Positions 8,639 through 26,836 of a stretch of 27,946 bases of DNA are shown here, in pieces. Position numbers and translations under genes: made by a program. This stretch comes from a virus: the UHGV virus genome UHGV-0178950. One strand, given 5' to 3'. Within the stretch, counting starts at the first letter, position 1; each line of letters starts with the position of its first letter. The notes below the pieces were generated by a model. The model did not search any database and had not been told where the DNA came from. It saw nothing but the letters and a program-made list of their open reading frames with translations.

Positions 8639-11600
8639 ATGCGATCAATCCAATTTAAACGCACACAAACGGCTGGTAAAAAACCAACGCCGGAACAATT
8701 ATCACAGGGTGAATTGGCTATTAACCTTGCTGATCACGTTCTGTATACCAAAGATAAAAATAACGCAGTAGTTCAAATCTCTGTTTCTCCAGAAAAACAT
8801 GCTGAACTTAACACGAAAGTAGACCAGAATAAAACCAACACTGACCGTGTTATTGCTTCCAACAAACAAGAGGCCGCTAATAATCTGGCTAGTGCTAAAG
8901 CTGAACTGAATCAGACTATTACCACGAAAGATACAGCGACCAATAAGCGCATTGATGCTACCAACACCACTGTTAGTAACTTAACCCAGACAGTTACGGC
9001 AAATAAAACCGATGCCGACACTAAGATCAATAACCTTACGGGGACCGTATCTGCGAATAAGACCGCAATTGAAAGAACCGTTGCCGCAAACAAATCTGAT
9101 GCAGATAGCAAACATGCAGCTTTAACGAAAACGGTCACTGACAATAACACCGCGATTAACAACAAGGTTAATACCACTAACACCAACGTTAGCAACTTAA
9201 CTAAAACTGTTACTGCAAATAAAACCGATGCAGATAACAAAATTTCTAGCTTAACTAGCACGGTTGCAGCTAACAAGACAGCGATCGAAAAGACTGTTTC
9301 CGACAATAAGAAAGACGCGGATACTAAGATTACCAATCTTACTGGCACTGTTAATAGCAACCATACCGCAATTAACAACAAGGTAGACCAGAATAAATCT
9401 TCTACTGATGCCGCAATTGCAGCCGCTAACAAACGAATTGATGGTATTGAAGGTAGCAATGATGCTCTTTACATCAAGAAGAATACCAATACTAAGCATG
9501 GTGGGTATCTGTTAAGCAAGACAGCTAACTATCTGGAAGACCAGACATCACGAGATCTTAACTACTTTGGTGCTTTCCGTACCAATGGTCAAGATGGACT
9601 CATGGATCTAACTCTTAATGTTCCTCATTCTGCCGGTAAAGCGCACGGTCGCGGATTTACTTTCCGTTATGCGTCTGGTGGATCTCGTGTTGAAACCTAT
9701 GGTTTTGATAGAGAAGGACAGAAGAACTTTAGCTATAAGATGTATCACGAAGGTGATAAGCCGACTCCTGGCGAGATTGGCGCATACACCAAAGCCGAAG
9801 TTGATAAGATGTTTGTTAAAAACGTCGTTATGTCTGTTCCCAATTCTAGCGAAAACGTATCTGCATATTTCAAATTGGCAACCGCAACAATTCCACAAAA
9901 CGGGCGTAGTGTGTTTTTCCGTATTCATGGTGGTAATGGTTACAACGTTACGGCATATGATCAGGTTGACGTAGTAGAAATTCTTCTGCGTAGTGGTAAC
10001 GATAGACCTAAAGGTCTTAACGTAATTGCATACCGTAGAAATACAAACAAAGATTTTGAGGTATTTGCTGTCAATACTTCCGGTGATAACTATGATATCT
10101 ACGTGAAATATCAGCGTTATACCGATAACGTTATTGTCGAATATGGGAAATCTGTTTATGTAAGTTTGACGGTTTATGATACGCCGGAAGCCACGTTAAT
10201 TAAACCTTCCGTTGGTGTTATCGGTGGTCGCAACGTAACTCTTTTTAATACTGAAAATAAACGTGGTGTGTTAAGTTTTGATGATAACACACAAAACAGC
10301 TATGACATTGTTCATCTAAGTAATGATAAAGGTACTGGACGGAAATATATTCGTAAATTCCGTAGCAACTATAACGAAATGGTTTGGCATGAAACCGTTC
10401 AGGGTGCTGTATATCGTCTTGCTACTGGTGCTACAGATTCTACAGAAGTTATTAGAATTGATTCTAATAGTGCAATACCGGGTAATTATAAAGGATATGT
10501 AATTACTGGTAAAATGGAATTGCACGGTAGTGGTAATGCGATGACTTTACATCGACAGACTGGTCAAGCTGCATATATGGCGTGGTGGGATCGTCGTGAT
10601 GGTAAAAACCAACGTAGTGGTTATATCGGTCATGCGGATGGTACTAGTGATGGTTTTGTGTGGCGTAATGATGTTGGTGCTAACTCATTTGATTTGGAAG
10701 GTAGTGGACAAGTAAATTTGACTACAGGAAAAACAAAAATTGTATATACCAATGGTCAATATTATTCCGCTAACGCTGATGCATTCCGTATGATTTACGG
10801 TAAGTATGGTGCATTCTGGCGAAATGATGGTGGTAAAGTTTATCTGTTGTCTACTGCCGAAAATGATAGATTTGGTGGTTGGAATACATATCGACCTTTT
10901 ATCTACGATCTTACTTCCGGTAACGTTCAATTAGGTGGTGATGGAAACGAAGATGTATTAACTCTAGAACGCGCAAGCAAGGCCGCTCGATTCTCTGGCA
11001 ACGCTTACATCAAAGGTCAACATTTAACATTTGATGCTGGTGCTGGACAATCCCGCGATTACTTCCGGTTTAACCATTGGGGCGATAGTAATAACGCTCG
11101 CGATAACATCCTACAGATTGAAGACAGTCAGGGTGCACACTTTACCACTGAACGCGCTATGGGTACTGGCAATATCACAGCACGTTTTAAAGGCTTTGTG
11201 CGTGTAGAATCCGGTGAGATTGCCTTTGATGCTAATCGTGGATCTGCGTCTCAATTTACCTTACATACATGGGGTAACGAGCAACGCAAACAGGTTTTTG
11301 AATGTAAGGATGCTACTAGTTATCATTGGTATACCGAACGTACAAACGGTGGAACTGGTCCTATCCTGTTCTCTGTTGCTGGTACATTAAAAACTGCGAG
11401 CAATATACAGGTTGGCGGTGCTGATATTGAGTTTCGTCGCAGTGGTAATAAGCATTTATGGTTTAGAGATCCGAACGGTTTAGAATTAGGTTTGATGTAC
11501 TGCGATGATGCTGGTGTTATCCGCTTCCGTGGTCAGAAACAAGGTCAAACTTGGAAACTTGCTGATAAAATGATTCATCTTGAGGCGGGGACTGTCGGCG

Positions 11601-12241
11601 GGTCTGATAAAGGTTTGATTCGTGGTAATGTTGCTGGTGGTAGCTGGGCTAGCTGGCGTGATCGTTCTGCCGGAATCCTCGTAGACTGTCCGAACTCAAC
11701 CGATTCCGCTCATAACATCTGGAAAGCGACTCATTGGGGAAAATATCATATTGCGGCAATGGGTGTGCATGTTCCTAGTGGTACTATTACCAATGCTTTA
11801 GCTCGCCTAAACGTTCACGACGCCAACTTTGACTTTAACGCTGCGGGTGATTTTAGCGCAGGTCGTAACGGTAGCTTTAACGATGTTTACATTCGCTCTG
11901 ACTCCCGTTTGAAGATTAACAAGGAAGAATTACAGGACGGTGCATTAGAGAAAGTAAACTCACTGAAAGTCTACACCTACGATAAAGTTAAATCTCTTTC
12001 CGATGACACGGTGATTAAACGCGAAGTAGGTATTATTGCTCAGGATCTGGAAAAAGTATTGCCGGAAGCAGTAGGTATTCAATCCACAGAAGATCCAGAA
12101 CAACCGGAAGCAATCAAGACTATTTCTAACTCTGCTGTTAATGCCTTGATTATTAAAGCTATGCAGGAAATGGACGCCAAATATAAAACACAGATCGAAG
12201 CATTACAGAAAGAAATTGCCGAACTGAAAGCAACTAAATAA
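8639..12241 (+). CDS. Long tail fibre with C-terminal intramolecular chaperone (peptidase S74-like) domain
   Basis: 1200 aa; N-terminal KKPTPEQLSQGELAIN box; Thr/Asn/Lys-rich tandem repeats; C-terminal SDSRLKINKEELQ...VYTYDK...GIIAQDLEKVLPEAV resembles the self-cleaving chaperone of L-shaped fibres and endosialidases. Confidence 0.8.
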   Translation: MRSIQFKRTQTAGKKPTPEQLSQGELAINLADHVLYTKDKNNAVVQISVSPEKHAELNTKVDQNKTNTDRVIASNKQEAANNLASAKAELNQTITTKDTATNKRIDATNTTVSNLTQTVTANKTDADTKINNLTGTVSANKTAIERTVAANKSDADSKHAALTKTVTDNNTAINNKVNTTNTNVSNLTKTVTANKTDADNKISSLTSTVAANKTAIEKTVSDNKKDADTKITNLTGTVNSNHTAINNKVDQNKSSTDAAIAAANKRIDGIEGSNDALYIKKNTNTKHGGYLLSKTANYLEDQTSRDLNYFGAFRTNGQDGLMDLTLNVPHSAGKAHGRGFTFRYASGGSRVETYGFDREGQKNFSYKMYHEGDKPTPGEIGAYTKAEVDKMFVKNVVMSVPNSSENVSAYFKLATATIPQNGRSVFFRIHGGNGYNVTAYDQVDVVEILLRSGNDRPKGLNVIAYRRNTNKDFEVFAVNTSGDNYDIYVKYQRYTDNVIVEYGKSVYVSLTVYDTPEATLIKPSVGVIGGRNVTLFNTENKRGVLSFDDNTQNSYDIVHLSNDKGTGRKYIRKFRSNYNEMVWHETVQGAVYRLATGATDSTEVIRIDSNSAIPGNYKGYVITGKMELHGSGNAMTLHRQTGQAAYMAWWDRRDGKNQRSGYIGHADGTSDGFVWRNDVGANSFDLEGSGQVNLTTGKTKIVYTNGQYYSANADAFRMIYGKYGAFWRNDGGKVYLLSTAENDRFGGWNTYRPFIYDLTSGNVQLGGDGNEDVLTLERASKAARFSGNAYIKGQHLTFDAGAGQSRDYFRFNHWGDSNNARDNILQIEDSQGAHFTTERAMGTGNITARFKGFVRVESGEIAFDANRGSASQFTLHTWGNEQRKQVFECKDATSYHWYTERTNGGTGPILFSVAGTLKTASNIQVGGADIEFRRSGNKHLWFRDPNGLELGLMYCDDAGVIRFRGQKQGQTWKLADKMIHLEAGTVGGSDKGLIRGNVAGGSWASWRDRSAGILVDCPNSTDSAHNIWKATHWGKYHIAAMGVHVPSGTITNALARLNVHDANFDFNAAGDFSAGRNGSFNDVYIRSDSRLKINKEELQDGALEKVNSLKVYTYDKVKSLSDDTVIKREVGIIAQDLEKVLPEAVGIQSTEDPEQPEAIKTISNSAVNALIIKAMQEMDAKYKTQIEALQKEIAELKATK
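8978..9409 (+). repeat. Two tandem copies of a 216-nt (72-aa) coding repeat inside the fibre gene
   Basis: NLTQTVTANKTDADTKINNLTGTVSANKTAIERTV... repeated as NLTKTVTANKTDADNKISSLTSTVAANKTAIEKTV..., period 216 nt (8978 to 9194). Confidence 0.7.
11896..12241 (+). other. Predicted autoproteolytic chaperone domain of the fibre; cleavage predicted at the Ser-Asp of SDSRLK
   Basis: SDxRLK-type motif at 11896-11913 followed by about 110 residues with a coiled-coil tail. Confidence 0.55.
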
Positions 12242-12248
12242 TAAAAGT

Positions 12249-12267
12249 CGGGGGACTAGTTCCCCCG
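12249..12267 (+). terminator. Hairpin after the fibre gene
   Basis: CGGGGGA-ctagt-TCCCCCG; weak T-tract, so terminator status uncertain. Confidence 0.4.
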
Positions 12268-12298
12268 TTATAAACAATTTTAATTAAGGGGTAATTCT

Positions 12299-12775
12299 AT
12301 GTCTCAGCAATTTAAAGATATTTTTACTGGTGGTCTGGTAAGTATGTTCTATCACGCCGATACCACTAACACCGATCTTGCACATGAAAGCTATGAAGAA
12401 ATTAAAGAGTGTGCTGGTTTTCCTGAAACTGGTATCGAGCGCGGCACTGTAGAAGTTAAATCCTTCTCTTCTCAGTACAACCGTAAGCTGGTAGGTAAAC
12501 TGAATGTTCCTGATCTGACTCTGACCGTTAACTACATTCCAGGTGATGCTACTCACGCTAAACTGGATAAGGCTGCCGAAGATGGTACGCGTATTCAGAT
12601 TAAGATTGAATATTATGTTGATGCTGGTAAGCAGACTGGTATTCGCACCGCTTTCAACGGCTTTATCTCTAAAGCTGCTATGCAGGGTGGCGACGAAGAA
12701 GTTGTAACCAAAGAATATACTTTTGCGGTTGATGGTGCTCCGATCAAACAGGAAGTGTTTACCACTGGCGGATGA
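12299..12775 (+). CDS. Abundant virion protein, candidate major tail tube protein, 158 aa
   Basis: Strong optimal codon bias as in the capsid domain; AAGGGGT Shine-Dalgarno; sits upstream of the G/T chaperones and tape measure; paralogous to the N-terminal half of the 7727 gene; a decoration protein is an alternative. Confidence 0.55.
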   Translation: MSQQFKDIFTGGLVSMFYHADTTNTDLAHESYEEIKECAGFPETGIERGTVEVKSFSSQYNRKLVGKLNVPDLTLTVNYIPGDATHAKLDKAAEDGTRIQIKIEYYVDAGKQTGIRTAFNGFISKAAMQGGDEEVVTKEYTFAVDGAPIKQEVFTTGG

Positions 12776-12901
12776 ACTAACGAAGAACTTCCTTTACCAG
12801 AATCGGAACCACTGCCGGAACATGAAGCGGTGGTGATTCCAGAAGTAGAAGAAGTTACGGCGAAAGCCACAGCAAAACGAGGCCGCAAGGCTAAGAATTA
12901 A
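12776..12901 (+). other. In-frame 41-codon extension after the major tail TGA stop; candidate readthrough product
   Basis: Open in frame 0 after TGA at 12773-12775; encodes TNEELPLPESEPLPEHEAVVIPEVEEVTAKATAKRGRKAKN; shares an identical 20-mer (gttacggcgaaagccacagc) with 6911-6930. Confidence 0.3.
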
Positions 12902-12906
12902 TTTTA

Positions 12907-12935
12907 AGCCCTGCCTTAATGGTGGGGCTTTTTTA
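12907..12935 (+). terminator. Rho-independent terminator after the major tail gene, same stem as 6964-6991
   Basis: AGCCCTGCC-ttaat-GGTGGGGCT followed by TTTTTT. Confidence 0.7.
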
Positions 12936-12949
12936 TTGGAGTAATCAAA

Positions 12950-13456
12950 ATGGCAAATGTCGTTAAAGTTCCTGGCTGGATCGGGTCATCTGCTGTATCG
13001 GTGACGGGTAAGCGATGGATGAAAGAAGCATTAACAGCTTTAAAAGTTCCGGCTCCGCGTAATATGTCGGCAATGGCTGGTCGTGGTATGGATACGGTTG
13101 TAGCTACTGCATCGTGGTCTACTTCATTGGGTAATAACTGGGGTGTAACTGCTTCAAACTATCCTGTTTCCGGTATGCAAAGCAAAGGATCTATGGAGAA
13201 CCCCGAAAACGTGGGCGTAGGGCGTCTGGTTGGCGTTATCGTTGGTCAATTCAATGGCGGTACTCCTACTATGGCTGTATATCTCCAGAACGGTAGAGCG
13301 GGGAATATAACCGTTAATTTGGGTGGTGCTGCTGTCACTGTTCCTTATAACAGTATGCAAAGTGGTTTTCATTACTATTGGTTAAGCAATCCTCCGGCTG
13401 CTTTCCTAACAAATATTAAGAAGACTGGCACTAAGCAGACTTTGAAAATCTCTTAA
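12950..13456 (+). CDS. Hypothetical tail-associated protein, 168 aa, Gly/Ser/Thr-rich
   Basis: ORF with GGAG Shine-Dalgarno; ordinary codon usage; lies between the tube candidate and the chaperones. Confidence 0.5.
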   Translation: MANVVKVPGWIGSSAVSVTGKRWMKEALTALKVPAPRNMSAMAGRGMDTVVATASWSTSLGNNWGVTASNYPVSGMQSKGSMENPENVGVGRLVGVIVGQFNGGTPTMAVYLQNGRAGNITVNLGGAAVTVPYNSMQSGFHYYWLSNPPAAFLTNIKKTGTKQTLKIS

Positions 13457-22133: not shown

Positions 22134-22151
22134 AATTTAATTTTAATAATT

Positions 22152-22192
22152 AATCCCGCTTAATTCTTTTGGGTTAGGCGGGATTATTTTTA
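22152..22192 (+). terminator. Terminator-like hairpin after the J-like gene
   Basis: AATCCCGC-(18 nt loop)-GCGGGATT followed by ATTTTTA. Confidence 0.45.
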
Positions 22193-22238
22193 TCTAAATA
22201 ATTTTGCCATTAAACTATATAAAAATATCGGGGGCGTA

Positions 22239-22517
22239 ATGACTGAAATTATATATGGCGGTATCGGTGTTATCGCCTTAATTTGTGGTGGTCTTTGGAG
22301 ACTTCACCGAAATCAATTAGCAACTGAAAATAGGTTATCTAAATTGGAATCCAGCGACGCATTGTTAAACCAGAAGTTTGAGACGATGCAGAATAACCAT
22401 ACTCAGATTGCTGAACGTGTTTACCAAATGGAACAAACACTACACGGTATAGAGAAGAAAGTGGTTGCGATGGACGCCAAATTTGACCAAGTTCTCGACA
22501 TACTCAAACAAAAATAA
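22239..22517 (+). CDS. Membrane protein with one N-terminal TM helix and a coiled-coil tail; holin/antiholin or i-spanin-like candidate
   Basis: 92 aa; hydrophobic IIYGGIGVIALICGGLW followed by a heptad-rich region. Confidence 0.5.
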   Translation: MTEIIYGGIGVIALICGGLWRLHRNQLATENRLSKLESSDALLNQKFETMQNNHTQIAERVYQMEQTLHGIEKKVVAMDAKFDQVLDILKQK

Positions 22518-22535
22518 TAATAAAGGGGTGAATAT

Positions 22536-22706
22536 ATGAAGAATAAACTTAAGAAATATTTTGGTTATCTCTTGATTGTCGCCCTCACTTATAACGTAGC
22601 TATTAGACCTCTGCTAACGTCCTTTGGGCTTGAACTCCCGGCTATGACCGTGGATGAACAATTGCTAAGGACACTGGCGGGGGTCTTTTCGTTATTAGGG
22701 GGCTAA
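22536..22706 (+). CDS. Small membrane protein, 56 aa (not in ORF track); holin-like candidate
   Basis: AAAGGGGTGA Shine-Dalgarno upstream of ATG 22536; hydrophobic FGYLLIVALTYNVAI; stop overlaps the next start (TAACATG). Confidence 0.4.
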   Translation: MKNKLKKYFGYLLIVALTYNVAIRPLLTSFGLELPAMTVDEQLLRTLAGVFSLLGG

Positions 22707-22707
22707 C

Positions 22708-23391
22708 ATGGCAACCAGTACCAATAAACGAAACGCTCTAAGGACTAAGAAAGCGTTACGGCAATGGTCTGAAAAGGCAACCGATACATTCGAAAGGGCA
22801 CTAGGGGAAGGAGCGATCTTTGCTTCCAGAGCACTCCAGAAGAAGATTAACAAGAATGTTGATAGACCTACTCGATGGACTCAACAAGCTGTAGGTAATA
22901 CCAACTACAAGAACCGATCAGGGACGAGACACCAAATCTTCATCAAGGGCGCAAGGGATAAGGACAAGAAGATCGGCAGTCAGGATGACTATCTGAAACA
23001 CTATTTCGATGGTGGCAAAATCAATAAGCTAGTGCCAATTGCCAACGGTAAGGTCTTAGACGCCCACGGGAACATTAAGGCCATCAAAGGCGGTAAGATG
23101 ATGCGTAACCTCGAAAACGGCAACTTCATCAAGGTAGAGAACAAGGAAGGGACTTTTATCATGAAGAAGTACAAGCCTAAGAAATCCCGAACCAAACGCG
23201 CTAGGAATGGATCGGCGGTGGCAAAACGTCGCTTAGAGAAACGCATCCAGAAACAGAGTAAGCGAATTGTTGCCGTTAAGTCGGATAAAATTTCTACTCG
23301 TTATTCGACGCTAGGATCGTGGGAAAGCAACGAGGAAATAATGCTTAAGAACATTAATAAGCACATTAAATCGCGCATGAGATATGTTTAA
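22708..23391 (+). CDS. Highly basic Lys/Arg-rich protein of unknown function, 227 aa
   Basis: ORF translationally coupled to the upstream small gene; composition suggests nucleic-acid binding. Confidence 0.55.
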   Translation: MATSTNKRNALRTKKALRQWSEKATDTFERALGEGAIFASRALQKKINKNVDRPTRWTQQAVGNTNYKNRSGTRHQIFIKGARDKDKKIGSQDDYLKHYFDGGKINKLVPIANGKVLDAHGNIKAIKGGKMMRNLENGNFIKVENKEGTFIMKKYKPKKSRTKRARNGSAVAKRRLEKRIQKQSKRIVAVKSDKISTRYSTLGSWESNEEIMLKNINKHIKSRMRYV

Positions 23392-23429
23392 TCCATAAAT
23401 ACCCTCATAGAATCTTATGGGGGTATAAC

Positions 23430-23777
23430 ATGGCTAAAAATATTTTCACTGAATTTCCTACTTATCCGGTCGATCAGCTTTCCGGTATTTTTATTAATGG
23501 CATTAGTCCAGAATCAATGACTTATGATTTTGAGGCGAAGAGAGTTAAACATAAACAATATAAAGAATGTATCCGTGACCATGAAAAGGGGACCGTGTTT
23601 TGTGTCGCTACATTGGCTAAACGTCCTAAGTATCGTTTTCGTGTCGGGCAAGAAGTCGATGTAGTTAATCCTTATAGCTTTAATTGTCTGGGCGATGCAC
23701 GCGCGGTGTGTGTAGGTACTGCTCCTTATTATATCAAGGGTATGCGCTTTATTGGTTATATCTTCGAAATGATCTAA
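23430..23777 (+). CDS. Hypothetical protein, 115 aa
   Basis: ORF preceded by a hairpin whose 3' arm supplies a GGGGGT Shine-Dalgarno. Confidence 0.55.
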   Translation: MAKNIFTEFPTYPVDQLSGIFINGISPESMTYDFEAKRVKHKQYKECIRDHEKGTVFCVATLAKRPKYRFRVGQEVDVVNPYSFNCLGDARAVCVGTAPYYIKGMRFIGYIFEMI

Positions 23778-23786
23778 GGGGGTAAT

Positions 23787-24140
23787 ATGTTAAGCAAACA
23801 TTTTTCTCGCAAGGAATTTAAATGTAAATGCGGAAAATGTGATTATGATACAATCGACGCTGAATTACTGGTAATTCTTGAGGATGTACGAGAGCACTTC
23901 GGTAAACCAGTGATTATTAACAGTGGCAACCGTTGCCCGACTCATAACAAGAATGTAGGCGGGGCAGCCAATAGCTATCACGTTCGAGGCCGTGCGGCTG
24001 ACATTGTTATCAAGGGTGTCTCACCTGATATTGTTCATGCTTATCTTGATGGGAAATATCCTACTCAATACGGCTTAGGAAAATATAAAACATTTACGCA
24101 TATCGATTCCAGATCAAAAAAATCACGGTGGAATGGATAA
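23787..24140 (+). CDS. Endolysin, zinc peptidase M15 family (YcbK-like / Peptidase_M15_3 type)
   Basis: 117 aa; KCKCGKCDYD Cys box, RCPTHNKNVGG, SYHVRGRAADI and FTHID motifs match the zinc-ligand pattern of M15 cell-wall peptidases; AAGGGGGT Shine-Dalgarno. Confidence 0.8.
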   Translation: MLSKHFSRKEFKCKCGKCDYDTIDAELLVILEDVREHFGKPVIINSGNRCPTHNKNVGGAANSYHVRGRAADIVIKGVSPDIVHAYLDGKYPTQYGLGKYKTFTHIDSRSKKSRWNG

Positions 24141-24143
24141 AAC

Positions 24144-24172
24144 AAAAGCGCCTCTGGTGGGCGCTTTTTTGT
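24144..24172 (+). terminator. Rho-independent terminator closing the + strand late operon
   Basis: AAAAGCGCC-tctggtg-GGCGCTTTT followed by TTTTT. Confidence 0.8.
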
Positions 24173-24411: not shown

Positions 24412-24684
24412 CTATGATTTATTTTCTTGTTCTATGAAAATCTTTCTCACCTCATCAGAATAAATGTCTAGTGATTCCTCATAACATTTTCTGTATTCAT
24501 CGTAATTACTGGTGGTCTTTTGACATAGCAATTTCAATGTCTTATGTGCTCCATCAATGAAAGCATCTTCTCTATAGGTTAGCGGTCTACGCATTTCTTG
24601 GTCTACGGTTGCCAATGCCAAGCAAGAATTCATAGATAAAATCAAACCTAAAATCTTAATCATCTTCATTAGCTTAAATTCCAA
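24412..24684 (-). CDS. Small secreted or lipoprotein-like protein, about 85-90 aa
   Basis: N-terminal signal peptide MKMIKILGLILSMNSCLALA with a possible AxA cleavage or atypical lipobox; two Cys in the mature part; overlaps the recombinase 3' end by 11 nt. Confidence 0.55.
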   Translation of the reverse strand: MEFKLMKMIKILGLILSMNSCLALATVDQEMRRPLTYREDAFIDGAHKTLKLLCQKTTSNYDEYRKCYEESLDIYSDEVRKIFIEQENKS

Positions 24685-26353
24685 ATTCTTGTAATGGACC
24701 TGGTATTTCTTCTTCTGGTTTCCAGTTCTTATCTGTCAGCATGTCTAAACATGGATGCAGAACAAGCCCGTTACTCTCCAGAATCTGCCTATCATTGATA
24801 GTCTTCAAATCAACGAAGATCCGGCCTTTCCTCGGTCCTCTTGAATTTTCTATTACAACTCTCTGGGTCTTGCCATCGATGTATTCCAGTACAAACAAGT
24901 TTTTGTACTTGTCAATCCTGCTACACCCGATCCGTTTTAGAGCTTGCTTAATCTTAAACCGGACCTTAATGCGATCCTCGTTGTAAACATCTTCTAAATC
25001 AAATTCTGCGAGCTTCTCCCAGCCTTGAGAGTCAACAGAATACATTTCCTCTTCTGCCATCTTAAGTTGATTGTAGAGTGTTTCACGCTCGCTATTGAGG
25101 GTAGTAATCTGATCGGCTAGCTCCTTCGTTGCTCCTGTCATAGCAGAAAGGGTAATCAGGTTATCAATCTTGCGTGATATTTCATCAATCTGTACTTTCA
25201 AAGCCGGAACCGGATTAGCCTTATCTTCAGCAATCCAGATTTTATCAGCCAGCAATTGCAATACAGCTTTCTCTAATTGGTCGCCGCGAAAACTCCAGTT
25301 TGTATGCACACATTCAATACGACTAGAGCGCATTGCATCGCATGAATAACGATATTGGTTAGGCCGTCTGTTTGTTCCTTTCACCTTAACCATAGCGGAA
25401 CCGCAATGTTCACATTTCAGCAGATTAACACCACTAAGCAGGGGGATCGGTTTAGCTTCTTCTTTGTCTCCATAGTTACATGCTCTAACACCAATGCTTT
25501 TCTTAAGGTGATAAAACTCAGCGTCATCTAGCACACGAGGGTAATAATCCTTTAACTCATACTTAACGCCATCTACAGAGATTTCCTTGATACCAATCAA
25601 AGCGCGGGTATGGAACAACCTTTCAATCATTGCTCGTGACCAGTTTGAATGCCTCTTGTGACTTGCGGCTGGTGGTGGTGTATATGTCGCGTTAAGGTGA
25701 TCCAGTATCTCGGCGGTAGACCGTCCATTCCTGCGTAATTCCACAACCTCCTGAACAATAGGGAAGAAGACCGGATCGGGACACACATAACCGGAAGTGG
25801 TATCAGTCCACCACATATTCTTTCCAACTTCCTCGATTGCCACAGCCGGATTTTGTGGATTTTCTTGATGAGCTTTAATCTTAATCAGTGCGCTTGAGTT
25901 AGTACGATTGCGCTTAGTCTGGCTTTCCTCATTACCACGGATGAATAAAAGGATGGAGAACATCAGGTCCATCGGGTTAGCGGTAACAGTATCAAGCGAG
26001 TAGATCTTGTTATCCATGCCAGTAACAATGGTTATCCCCCTACGGATGATTGAAAGGAATAACTCCTGCGCACTGACAATATCGGCACGGGATAAACGGT
26101 CCAAGTTTTCGATGAATAGCCAGCTACCAACAGGAACGGATCTACCTATTGCATCAAGGAAACGAGATAGCGCCCCTGTTTTGGAGTTAGCACCCTTAAA
26201 CGCAGATACACCCAGATCCTGATAATCATTTACCAGTTCAAGGTCATACTTTACCGCAATCTCTCTAGCCATCCTGATTTGTCGTTCATAACTCGAACCA
26301 TCATTCTGACGCATAGACGAGAAGCGAATATACGAATACAGTTTAGTTTTCAT
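24674..26353 (-). CDS. Large serine recombinase (integrase/resolvase superfamily)
   Basis: N-terminal catalytic domain YSYIRFSSMRQ...SYERQ...ENLDRLSR, zinc-ribbon-like CEHCGSAM...YRYSC, C-terminal coiled coil; start set at the ATG encoding MKTKLYSYIR, the ORF track extends to a TTG at 26368. Confidence 0.85.
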   Translation of the reverse strand: MKTKLYSYIRFSSMRQNDGSSYERQIRMAREIAVKYDLELVNDYQDLGVSAFKGANSKTGALSRFLDAIGRSVPVGSWLFIENLDRLSRADIVSAQELFLSIIRRGITIVTGMDNKIYSLDTVTANPMDLMFSILLFIRGNEESQTKRNRTNSSALIKIKAHQENPQNPAVAIEEVGKNMWWTDTTSGYVCPDPVFFPIVQEVVELRRNGRSTAEILDHLNATYTPPPAASHKRHSNWSRAMIERLFHTRALIGIKEISVDGVKYELKDYYPRVLDDAEFYHLKKSIGVRACNYGDKEEAKPIPLLSGVNLLKCEHCGSAMVKVKGTNRRPNQYRYSCDAMRSSRIECVHTNWSFRGDQLEKAVLQLLADKIWIAEDKANPVPALKVQIDEISRKIDNLITLSAMTGATKELADQITTLNSERETLYNQLKMAEEEMYSVDSQGWEKLAEFDLEDVYNEDRIKVRFKIKQALKRIGCSRIDKYKNLFVLEYIDGKTQRVVIENSRGPRKGRIFVDLKTINDRQILESNGLVLHPCLDMLTDKNWKPEEEIPGPLQEFGI

Positions 26354-26359
26354 ACCATT

Positions 26360-26402
26360 TCCAAACAAAAACGCCCCTACCGCGTATTATAACGATAGGG
26401 GC
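26360..26402 (-). terminator. Hairpin plus T-rich run on the minus strand between the secreted-protein gene and the recombinase; loop contains TATAAT
   Basis: GCCCCTA...TAGGGGC stem; minus-strand downstream GTTTTTGTTTGG. Confidence 0.4.
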
Positions 26403-26416
26403 TAGGTGATTAAAGA

Positions 26417-26836
26417 TTAAAGAATTTCACGGCAGCTAATCAGGGAATAAGACGTATCACCTTTTTTAACATCAAATATAGGCGCGCCATCTACAGAATG
26501 CAGATATTTGATGTAGGATTTACCATCTTCGGAACCATAATATTCTTCTTTCTCGTTCTTATCTTCTTTCAGTTTTGGACTTTTGATTGTTTTATCAAAT
26601 ACCGGATCGTTGAAAGCAAATTGACTATTATCATCATTCACTCGAACCTTTACACCGATAAAACTACGGTATTTGCCAGACGGCGCATGATAATAACGGT
26701 CGCCATCACTCAGGTAGCGTGTATCATCTCCTTTATATTCGAAGTAGGAATTGCACACATAATAGGTATAGGTATTAGCATTCGCAGCACCAACCAAACC
26801 CAGAGCAAGAACAACACCAGCGATAATCTTTTTCAT
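26417..26836 (-). CDS. Secreted Tyr/Asp/Lys-rich protein of unknown function, 139 aa
   Basis: Signal peptide MKKIIAGVVLALGLVGAANA with AxA cleavage site; two Cys in the mature protein. Confidence 0.6.
   Translation of the reverse strand: MKKIIAGVVLALGLVGAANANTYTYYVCNSYFEYKGDDTRYLSDGDRYYHAPSGKYRSFIGVKVRVNDDNSQFAFNDPVFDKTIKSPKLKEDKNEKEEYYGSEDGKSYIKYLHSVDGAPIFDVKKGDTSYSLISCREIL

Follow-up and report, generated by a model that had tools for sequence, protein, structure and literature searches.

A conserved late cassette combining lysis genes with a probable tail completion gene in an Escherichia coli prophage

The lambda-type lysis cassette comprises a holin, an endolysin and an i-/o-spanin pair, with small membrane protein(s) and a cytoplasmic endolysin encoded in one late transcription unit, and tail completion genes of the gpZ type (lambda gpZ, SPP1 gp16.1 and 80alpha gp51, PHROG 27) lie between the head-closure and the tail-terminator genes. 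Endolysins of the M15A peptidase type are found in SP6-like podophages (Proteus PM93/Pm5460, Pectobacterium PP1, Klebsiella K1-ULIP33 and UAB_Phi78), and genes of PHROG 1924, annotated as minor tail protein, lie beside the lysis genes and outside the neck module in Pseudomonas LESphi2/3, F10 and MD8, Citrobacter phiNP, Rhodobacter RcCronus and Synechococcus S-CBS1/3. Features of these systems meet at positions 22239-24140 of UHGV-0178950, a virus genome stretch of 27,946 nucleotides that was analysed as a whole (the window). This interval, which an earlier note made from the sequence alone had described as an atypical lysis region, is a genuine late cassette, conserved and bounded by terminators, that contains lysis genes together with one probable tail completion gene. 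Its parts are mostly of known kinds, the mildly unusual points being the arrangement of the genes, holin candidates that fit no known family and an E. coli copy devoid of spanins; the gene order is uncommon, yet the system as such is not of a new kind. The best explanation of the element that carries it, held with moderate confidence, is a lambda/T5-like siphovirus prophage in hicB of Escherichia coli, with the interval as its terminal late-gene cassette. The cassette and its boundaries consist of the following features.

22151 to 22186, + strand: intrinsic terminator with a 16-bp stem and a T-run, after the J-like tail tip gene
22239 to 22517, + strand: called open reading frame, 92-residue membrane protein with one N-terminal transmembrane domain
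22536 to 22706, + strand: called open reading frame, likely membrane protein of 56 residues with a hydrophobic stretch at residues 8-24
22708 to 23391, + strand: very basic protein of 227 residues, a member of phrog_1924
23430 to 23777, + strand: conserved protein of 115 residues, predicted small beta-barrel
23787 to 24140, + strand: Peptidase_M15_3 (M15A) endolysin of 117 residues, from Pfam and phrog_894
24144 to 24168, no single strand: GC-rich hairpin flanked on each strand by a T-run, a bidirectional terminator at the end of the cassette

The five open reading frames, with lengths of 92, 56, 227, 115 and 117 residues, are located as given in the earlier note, and all five are conserved in relatives. 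The five-gene order J-[~92]-[~56]-[basic 181-239]-[~110-115]-[M15] recurs in a divergent E. coli lineage, in Salmonella and E. coli variants, in Providencia and in Edwardsiella, where protein identities can be as low as 27-57%, and because gene order and reading-frame lengths are kept down to this level, the five represent real, co-inherited genes. A fifth lineage (L011/L012) has kept homologues of the first four genes (101, 54, 186 and 105 residues) and carries a Peptidase_M15_4 enzyme in the endolysin slot. Neither the cassette DNA nor four of the five cassette proteins has a counterpart in 50,697 deposited phage genomes, and comparison of the 227-, 115- and 92-residue proteins, and of a 99-residue protein from a metagenomic relative (L013), with these records gave nothing useful. 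The terminator that sets the cassette off from the tail genes is kept in the relatives, Providencia differing on both stem arms with the pairing apparently retained in an alignment judged by eye. Conserved as well is the leader between this terminator and the 92-residue gene (TTGCCA...TTAAAT). E. coli and relatives as far as Providencia share the stretch at 22187-22238 (ATAAATAAtTtTGCCA...TTAAAT.AT), which does not fit a sigma-70 promoter, no match to which was found on the + strand of the gap before the cassette; it could be a late promoter or a regulatory site of some other type.

The last gene of the cassette encodes the lytic enzyme. The 117-residue protein matches Pfam Peptidase_M15_3 (PF08291) with an E value of 8.8e-28 (97 bits against a cut-off of 23.2) and the 'endolysin' family phrog_894 with an E value of 1.7e-45, and its zinc-binding motifs, H-x6-D (SYHVRGRAAD) and H-x-D (THID), are retained in the relatives and align with the motif of the Zn D-Ala-D-Ala carboxypeptidase in PDB 1lbu. 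In agreement with the earlier reading of an M15 endolysin that has no signal peptide and is the last gene before the terminator, the protein lacks a hydrophobic N-terminus, carries neither a signal nor a signal-arrest-release (SAR) sequence, and is followed directly by the hairpin at 24144-24168. With annotated endolysins of SP6-like podophages it shares 60-64% identity, a length of 113-117 residues, the Peptidase_M15_3 domain, the Zn motifs, the absence of a signal sequence and a gene that stands apart from that of the holin. Unlike those enzymes, it belongs to a temperate siphovirus-type prophage, in which its gene ends a cassette that also has a probable virion gene. Judged by these sequence features, the protein appears to be a genuine, standard cytoplasmic M15A endolysin.

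The designation as an atypical lysis region holds in part. A lysis locus is indicated by the identity of the M15 protein with the SP6-like endolysins, by the non-orthologous replacement of M15_3 by M15_4 in the endolysin slot of L011/L012 and by the spanin genes beside the endolysin gene in the Edwardsiella relative (L020), whereas the cassette as a whole is probably a mixed lysis-plus-virion one and not purely a lysis region. In L020 the order J-96-54-181-110-M15 is followed by two genes on the opposite strand (10448-11022, minus) that are convergent with the M15 endolysin gene. They encode an o-spanin, an 83-residue lipoprotein with a PF26831 Phage_T4_Spanin domain and the lipobox ISGC, and a 108-residue i-spanin-like protein with an N-in transmembrane domain (TMD) and a coiled coil; by sequence, this pair appears to match the classic T4-type separated spanin pair (PseT.3/PseT.2 in T4), which the Edwardsiella relative adds to the cassette. 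The E. coli, Salmonella and Providencia relatives are without a pair of this type, and neither L020 spanin has a tblastn match in the E. coli window. That no lipoprotein o-spanin is evident, as noted before, is borne out by six-frame lipobox scans, covering the window as well as the prophage left arm, in which no plausible reading frame for an o-spanin or u-spanin appeared; this absence is lineage-specific. A 90-residue antisense reading frame (24412-24684) was considered as an o-spanin and rejected, its MNSC being a poor lipobox and the protein having no similarity to the L020 o-spanin. Compared with the lambda-type cassette, the E. coli copy is spanin-free, two non-lysis genes are interposed, and the holin candidates are unrelated to known families, one of them having an unusual predicted N-out/C-in single-TMD topology.

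The protein with this topology is the 92-residue one, which consists of an acidic N-tail (MTE), a TMD at residues 4-20, the sequence RLHR and a heptad-repeat coiled coil that forms a long polar C-terminus. Its homologues hold the same position in all J-adjacent cassettes and always show the acidic N-tail, a Gly-rich TMD, the motif W-R/K-L/I-H...R and a strong heptad repeat in which 15 of 20 a/d positions are hydrophobic. From the charge pattern MTE / TMD / RLHR, which is conserved in all homologues, the positive-inside rule predicts an N-out/C-in orientation with the coiled coil in the cytoplasm. Searches of Pfam, PHROGs and NCBIfam gave sub-threshold coiled-coil matches only. The protein was also considered as an i-spanin, which would have an N-in TMD and a periplasmic coiled coil, and this was rejected, as the predicted topology is the opposite and L020 has a separate i-spanin-like gene. 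The 56-residue protein starts with MKNKLKK, followed by a predicted TMD at residues 8-24 and a weakly hydrophobic C-terminal helix, and its family is characterised by an N-terminus rich in Lys, a single TMD in which a YN motif is conserved, and the same type of C-terminal helix. Topology prediction, a check that the earlier note had proposed, orients it N-in. Of the two membrane proteins claimed in that note, the 92-residue one has a clear N-terminal TMD, whereas the 56-residue one, with a hydrophobic stretch below the Kyte-Doolittle TMD threshold (1.6 over 19 residues), is a likely membrane protein, less certain than the other. The 56-residue family is confined to this prophage lineage, all members are annotated as hypothetical, and a weak match to phrog_2024 (unknown function) was obtained for the E. 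coli protein (E 5e-3) and for its L013 homologue (E 2.6e-4). A single base (TAAcATG) separates the stop codon of the 56-residue gene from the start codon of the basic-protein gene, and in L013 the pair of 56-residue and basic-protein genes is kept upstream of TerS, beside a divergently transcribed T4-type lysozyme gene.

A role of these two proteins as holin or holin partner is slightly favoured, given that they are the only membrane proteins in a unit which ends with a signal-less endolysin. In size, place and TMD content the holin-like candidates of the earlier note bear scrutiny, being small TMD proteins in the same terminator-bounded unit as the endolysin; a family assignment does not follow, and the role is one that we infer. 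It is weakened by the fact that neither protein matches a holin, spanin or other named family in Pfam, PHROG or NCBIfam or has an annotated homologue, and that the 56-residue protein ends with ...GVFSLLGG and is without the charged C-terminal tail typical of holins.

The third gene of the cassette encodes the protein described before as Lys/Arg-rich, and its composition agrees with that description (25% Lys+Arg, pI 10.8, net charge +38, no Cys); it has neither a signal sequence nor a TMD. Its close family is tiny and consists of six clusters, and a profile search among 1.8 billion representatives found 12 proteins, the remote ones of which consistently match phrog_1924 'minor tail protein', with P0033 as a full member (E 2.4e-33). 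The 227-residue protein itself matches phrog_1924 with an E value of 3.3e-4, and an hhalign comparison of the enterobacterial family with phrog_1924 members (LESphi3, phiNP, RcCronus and P0033) gave 98.2% probability and an E value of 5.6e-14 over about 110 N-terminal columns, with the motifs DRPT-FT, YL--Y/F-GG and YGNI in common. At the level of sequence profiles, these comparisons establish its homology to phrog_1924. Members of phrog_1924 in turn match phrog_27 'tail completion or Neck1 protein' (LESphi3 P31_35, E 4.2e-8; phiNP_029, E 3e-3), and lambda gpZ matches phrog_1924 (E 1.9e-4), by which the phrog_1924 proteins appear to be remote relatives of the lambda gpZ/Neck1 tail completion proteins. 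Lambda gpZ is similar in composition (24% Lys+Arg, pI 12, no Cys), and the PHROG 27 proteins share with the 227-residue protein a very basic, Cys-free make-up, a length of ~190-250 residues and, by prediction, helical termini around a loop/beta region, the similarity being at profile level through phrog_1924 and the fold of the 227-residue protein a predicted one. In an AlphaFold2 (AF2) model with a pLDDT of 43, which is unreliable, long N-terminal helices are followed by a central loop/beta region and long C-terminal helices, an order that agrees with what PMC11661146 describes for the tail completion protein of 80alpha and for gpZ as predicted. The only member of this class that has been located in the virion is 80alpha gp51, which lies within the tail, with the DNA end on one side of it and the tape measure protein on the other (PMC11661146).

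The gene neighbourhoods are consistent with such a role. The neck module of the window contains a 96-residue FII-like head-tail attachment protein (Pfam E 2.8e-5; 25.1 bits, slightly below the 26-bit curated cut-off), an unassigned 156-residue open reading frame, which has no relative by PDB sequence search, and then the tube genes, and no recognised tail completion protein is found in it. The neck module of LESphi3 is likewise without one, and in this phage the phrog_1924 gene directly follows holin-endolysin-Rz. In the deposited phages the phrog_1924 gene adjoins lysis/terminase genes and is the last before cos/TerS in RcCronus, F10, MD8 and S-CBS1/3. It is there flanked by the lysis cassette and TerS and belongs to the beginning of the late operon, whereas here it follows the tail tip gene at the operon end, between the holin candidates and the endolysin gene. 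It is quite likely that the 227-residue protein is a displaced gpZ-like tail completion protein and not a lysis protein, which would bring the earlier suggestion of a DNA-binding or co-injected protein close to the mark and sharpen it to a phrog_1924 member, remotely related to gpZ/Neck1, of a class whose 80alpha representative lies between the DNA end and the tape measure.

Several results weigh against this assignment. The gene stands behind the J-like gene, with the neck module ~15 kb upstream, and unlike gpZ-type genes it is found neither between head-closure and tail-terminator genes nor just upstream of the tail terminator/tube genes; a tail completion gene outside the neck departs from the synteny by which siphovirus tail completion proteins are defined (PMC11099176, Table 1). 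Furthermore, the protein has no match to Pfam Minor_tail_Z or HK97-gp10 (PF06763/PF04883), an hhalign comparison of its family with lambda gpZ as a single sequence found no match, phrog_1924 members matched gpZ weakly (E 2.3e-3, probability 12%), and PDB sequence searches with the family profiles gave chance matches only. The link between phrog_1924 and gpZ is transitive and concerns mainly the N-terminal ~80 residues, and the poor pLDDT of the AF2 model counts on the same side. As to the neighbouring gene, the 115-residue protein is conserved and predicted to be a small beta-barrel; a 132-residue L013 protein was tried as its homologue and the comparison gave no support.

On balance, the cassette is considered to combine lysis and virion completion functions and to be set off from the tail genes by the conserved terminator, a reading that is reasonably likely. 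The genes would be transcribed as one late unit. The M15A zinc peptidase (117 residues) would accumulate in the cytoplasm and would have no access to the murein until the inner membrane is permeabilised, a step that would be brought about by the 56-residue and/or the 92-residue protein, the sole candidates, both encoded at the head of the cassette. The 56-residue protein (N-in, with one or two TMDs) would be the likelier holin, and the 92-residue protein (N-out/C-in, a membrane-anchored cytoplasmic coiled coil) may act as a partner, a regulator or a second holin. As the E. coli copy has no spanin, outer-membrane rupture would be spanin-independent or inefficient. By analogy with 80alpha gp51, the 227-residue protein would occupy the lumen of the proximal tail, between the tape measure and the cos DNA end, and infectivity, not lysis, would depend on it, and the 115-residue beta-barrel protein may be an accessory.

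The main alternative for the two membrane proteins, to which a minor but appreciable probability is given, is that they are not holins but late membrane factors (for instance in superinfection exclusion, PspB/PspC-like envelope stress or assembly anchoring), the holin being unrecognised or, in a lysis-defective prophage, absent. This would agree with the missing holin-family match and with the predicted topology of the 92-residue protein, whose N-out TMD and cytoplasmic coiled coil are unlike all three classical holin topologies, with a sub-threshold PspC-domain match of the 54-residue L011 homologue (E 3.2e-4, 20.9 bits against a 25-bit cut-off), and with the tight coupling of the 56-residue gene to the tail completion gene and not to the endolysin gene, which in L013 goes as far as the pair staying together while the lysozyme gene is divergent. 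However, holin families are very diverse, which makes missing homology weak evidence, a cytoplasmic endolysin requires a holin, and no lysis gene was recognised in the left arm or elsewhere in the 34-kb element by annotation and PHROG scans; moreover, the two are the only membrane proteins of the operon, and every cassette has retained both, among them the one that carries spanins. A more far-reaching proposal, which is doubtful, sees in the 56- and 92-residue proteins an undescribed holin system that includes an N-out/C-in protein with one membrane pass and a coiled coil in the cytoplasm, its gene being translationally coupled to and co-inherited with the displaced gpZ-like gene, which would link tail completion and lysis timing genetically or physically. 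The M15 peptidase could in turn be a virion-associated murein hydrolase for entry, in a cassette that is structural throughout and has no true endolysin, considering that its gene is near the tail tip gene and that of a probable virion protein and that the enzyme is small and single-domain; this is highly improbable in view of its 60-64% identity to annotated SP6-like phage endolysins and of the replacement by an M15_4 enzyme and the adjacent L020 spanin genes, both of which are typical of endolysin slots.

For the basic protein, a function as a DNA-binding packaging or cos-end accessory factor, or as an internal ejected protein, would imply that it is not a gpZ equivalent and that the Neck1 likeness is limited to a common N-terminal helical region. 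The position of phrog_1924 genes in cos phages, very often the last before cos/TerS (RcCronus, F10, MD8, S-CBS1/3 and LESphi3), speaks for this, as that position is occupied by the terminase-associated HNH protein in HK97, and so do the extreme positive charge and the fact that the phrog_27 similarity spans about 80 residues only. Yet the linkage to the terminase is not conserved, the gene being ~20 kb from TerL and not beside TerS or cos in the window and the relatives, gpZ is equally basic and has been proposed to bind the DNA end (PMC11661146), and genomes with a phrog_1924-type gene have no recognised tail completion gene in the neck module, all of which makes this function unlikely. Still further from probable is a lysis effector, in which the 227-residue protein, with or without the 115-residue one, would act in place of the missing spanins as a large cationic disruptor of the outer membrane, in a role like that of the phiKT gp28 'disruptin'. 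The protein is indeed strongly cationic and encoded inside a lysis cassette of a spanin-free E. coli element, but L020 has a family member alongside a spanin pair and in LESphi3 the gene comes after that of an Rz-like spanin, which argues against a spanin substitute. The protein is also homologous to a virion-protein family, lacks a signal or TMD that could bring it out of the cytoplasm ahead of holin action, and is four times as large as the known disruptin.

If the assignment as a gpZ-like tail completion protein is correct, the gpZ-like family phrog_1924 is encoded with lysis/terminase genes and not in the neck module, which would undermine the synteny rule used to find tail completion proteins and account for the tail completion genes 'missing' from a number of siphoviruses (Pseudomonas, Rhodobacter, cyanobacterial and enterobacterial). 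Likewise, both small membrane proteins, of which one is predicted to have an unusual topology, would become testable holin candidates, and the E. coli and Edwardsiella cassettes, without and with spanins, would form a natural pair with regard to the spanin need of a temperate phage. These points are modest and leave current lysis models unchanged.

The prophage of ~34 kb splits hicB of E. coli, was found in 56 of 5,426 complete E. coli genomes and is represented in the window by its right ~28 kb.

NZ_CP024141.1, 2587365 to 2621751 (L003, L004): whole element, covering positions 1 to 27946 of the window

Its left part within the window has the order TerL, W-like protein, portal and protease-capsid fusion, the latter a 670-residue open reading frame (4817-6829) that matches both prohead protease and major capsid families (phrog_617 and phrog_4523). 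The tube genes are followed by the tail genes for the G/T chaperones, the tape measure, a pb9-like distal tail protein, the hub, a DUF6950 protein and the J-like tail tip protein (1257 residues), and at the right end the J-like gene leads into the cassette and then to a large serine integrase gene on the opposite strand. The left arm contains TerS, an Ant/Rha-like regulator and several proteins without assigned function. Altogether, the element has a full head/tail set, TerS and the Ant/Rha-like regulator, and replication or repressor genes are not recognisable in it; its integrase is a 564-residue large serine recombinase (24674-26368, minus). In the relatives L001 and L008-L010, UvsW-like helicase and UvsY-like genes lie between the cassette and the integrase gene.

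The siphovirus tail module is an odd mosaic, as T4-type fibre genes are present in a lambda/T5-like tail (window 7727-13456). They include a T4 gp37-like long tail fibre gene (1200 residues, 8639-12241) and a gp38-like adhesin gene (12950-13456) and are flanked by tube-like genes of 277 residues (7727-8560) and 158 residues (12299-12775). In L009, a 257-residue NUMOD3 gene of the homing-endonuclease type (2410-3183) is inserted between the tail hub and DUF6950 genes. At the left end of the prophage and outside the window (L004 9719-10498), a gene for a 259-residue secreted protein of the 'lysozyme inhibitor LprI family' adjoins TerS, which is curious in an element whose own endolysin is a peptidase and not a lysozyme.

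Two further small genes are located around the integrase gene. The unannotated 90-residue reading frame at 24412-24684 (minus) lies between the endolysin terminator and the integrase gene, and shares 11 bases with the 3' end of the latter. Its product starts with a signal-like segment (MKMIKILGLILSMNSCLALA), shows 99% conservation in strain 14EC029 and may be a secreted moron. Between the integrase gene and attR, positions 26417-26836 (minus) encode a 139-residue protein that has a cleavable signal peptide (MKKIIAGVVLALGLVGAANA) and no family match and is probably a lysogenic-conversion moron.

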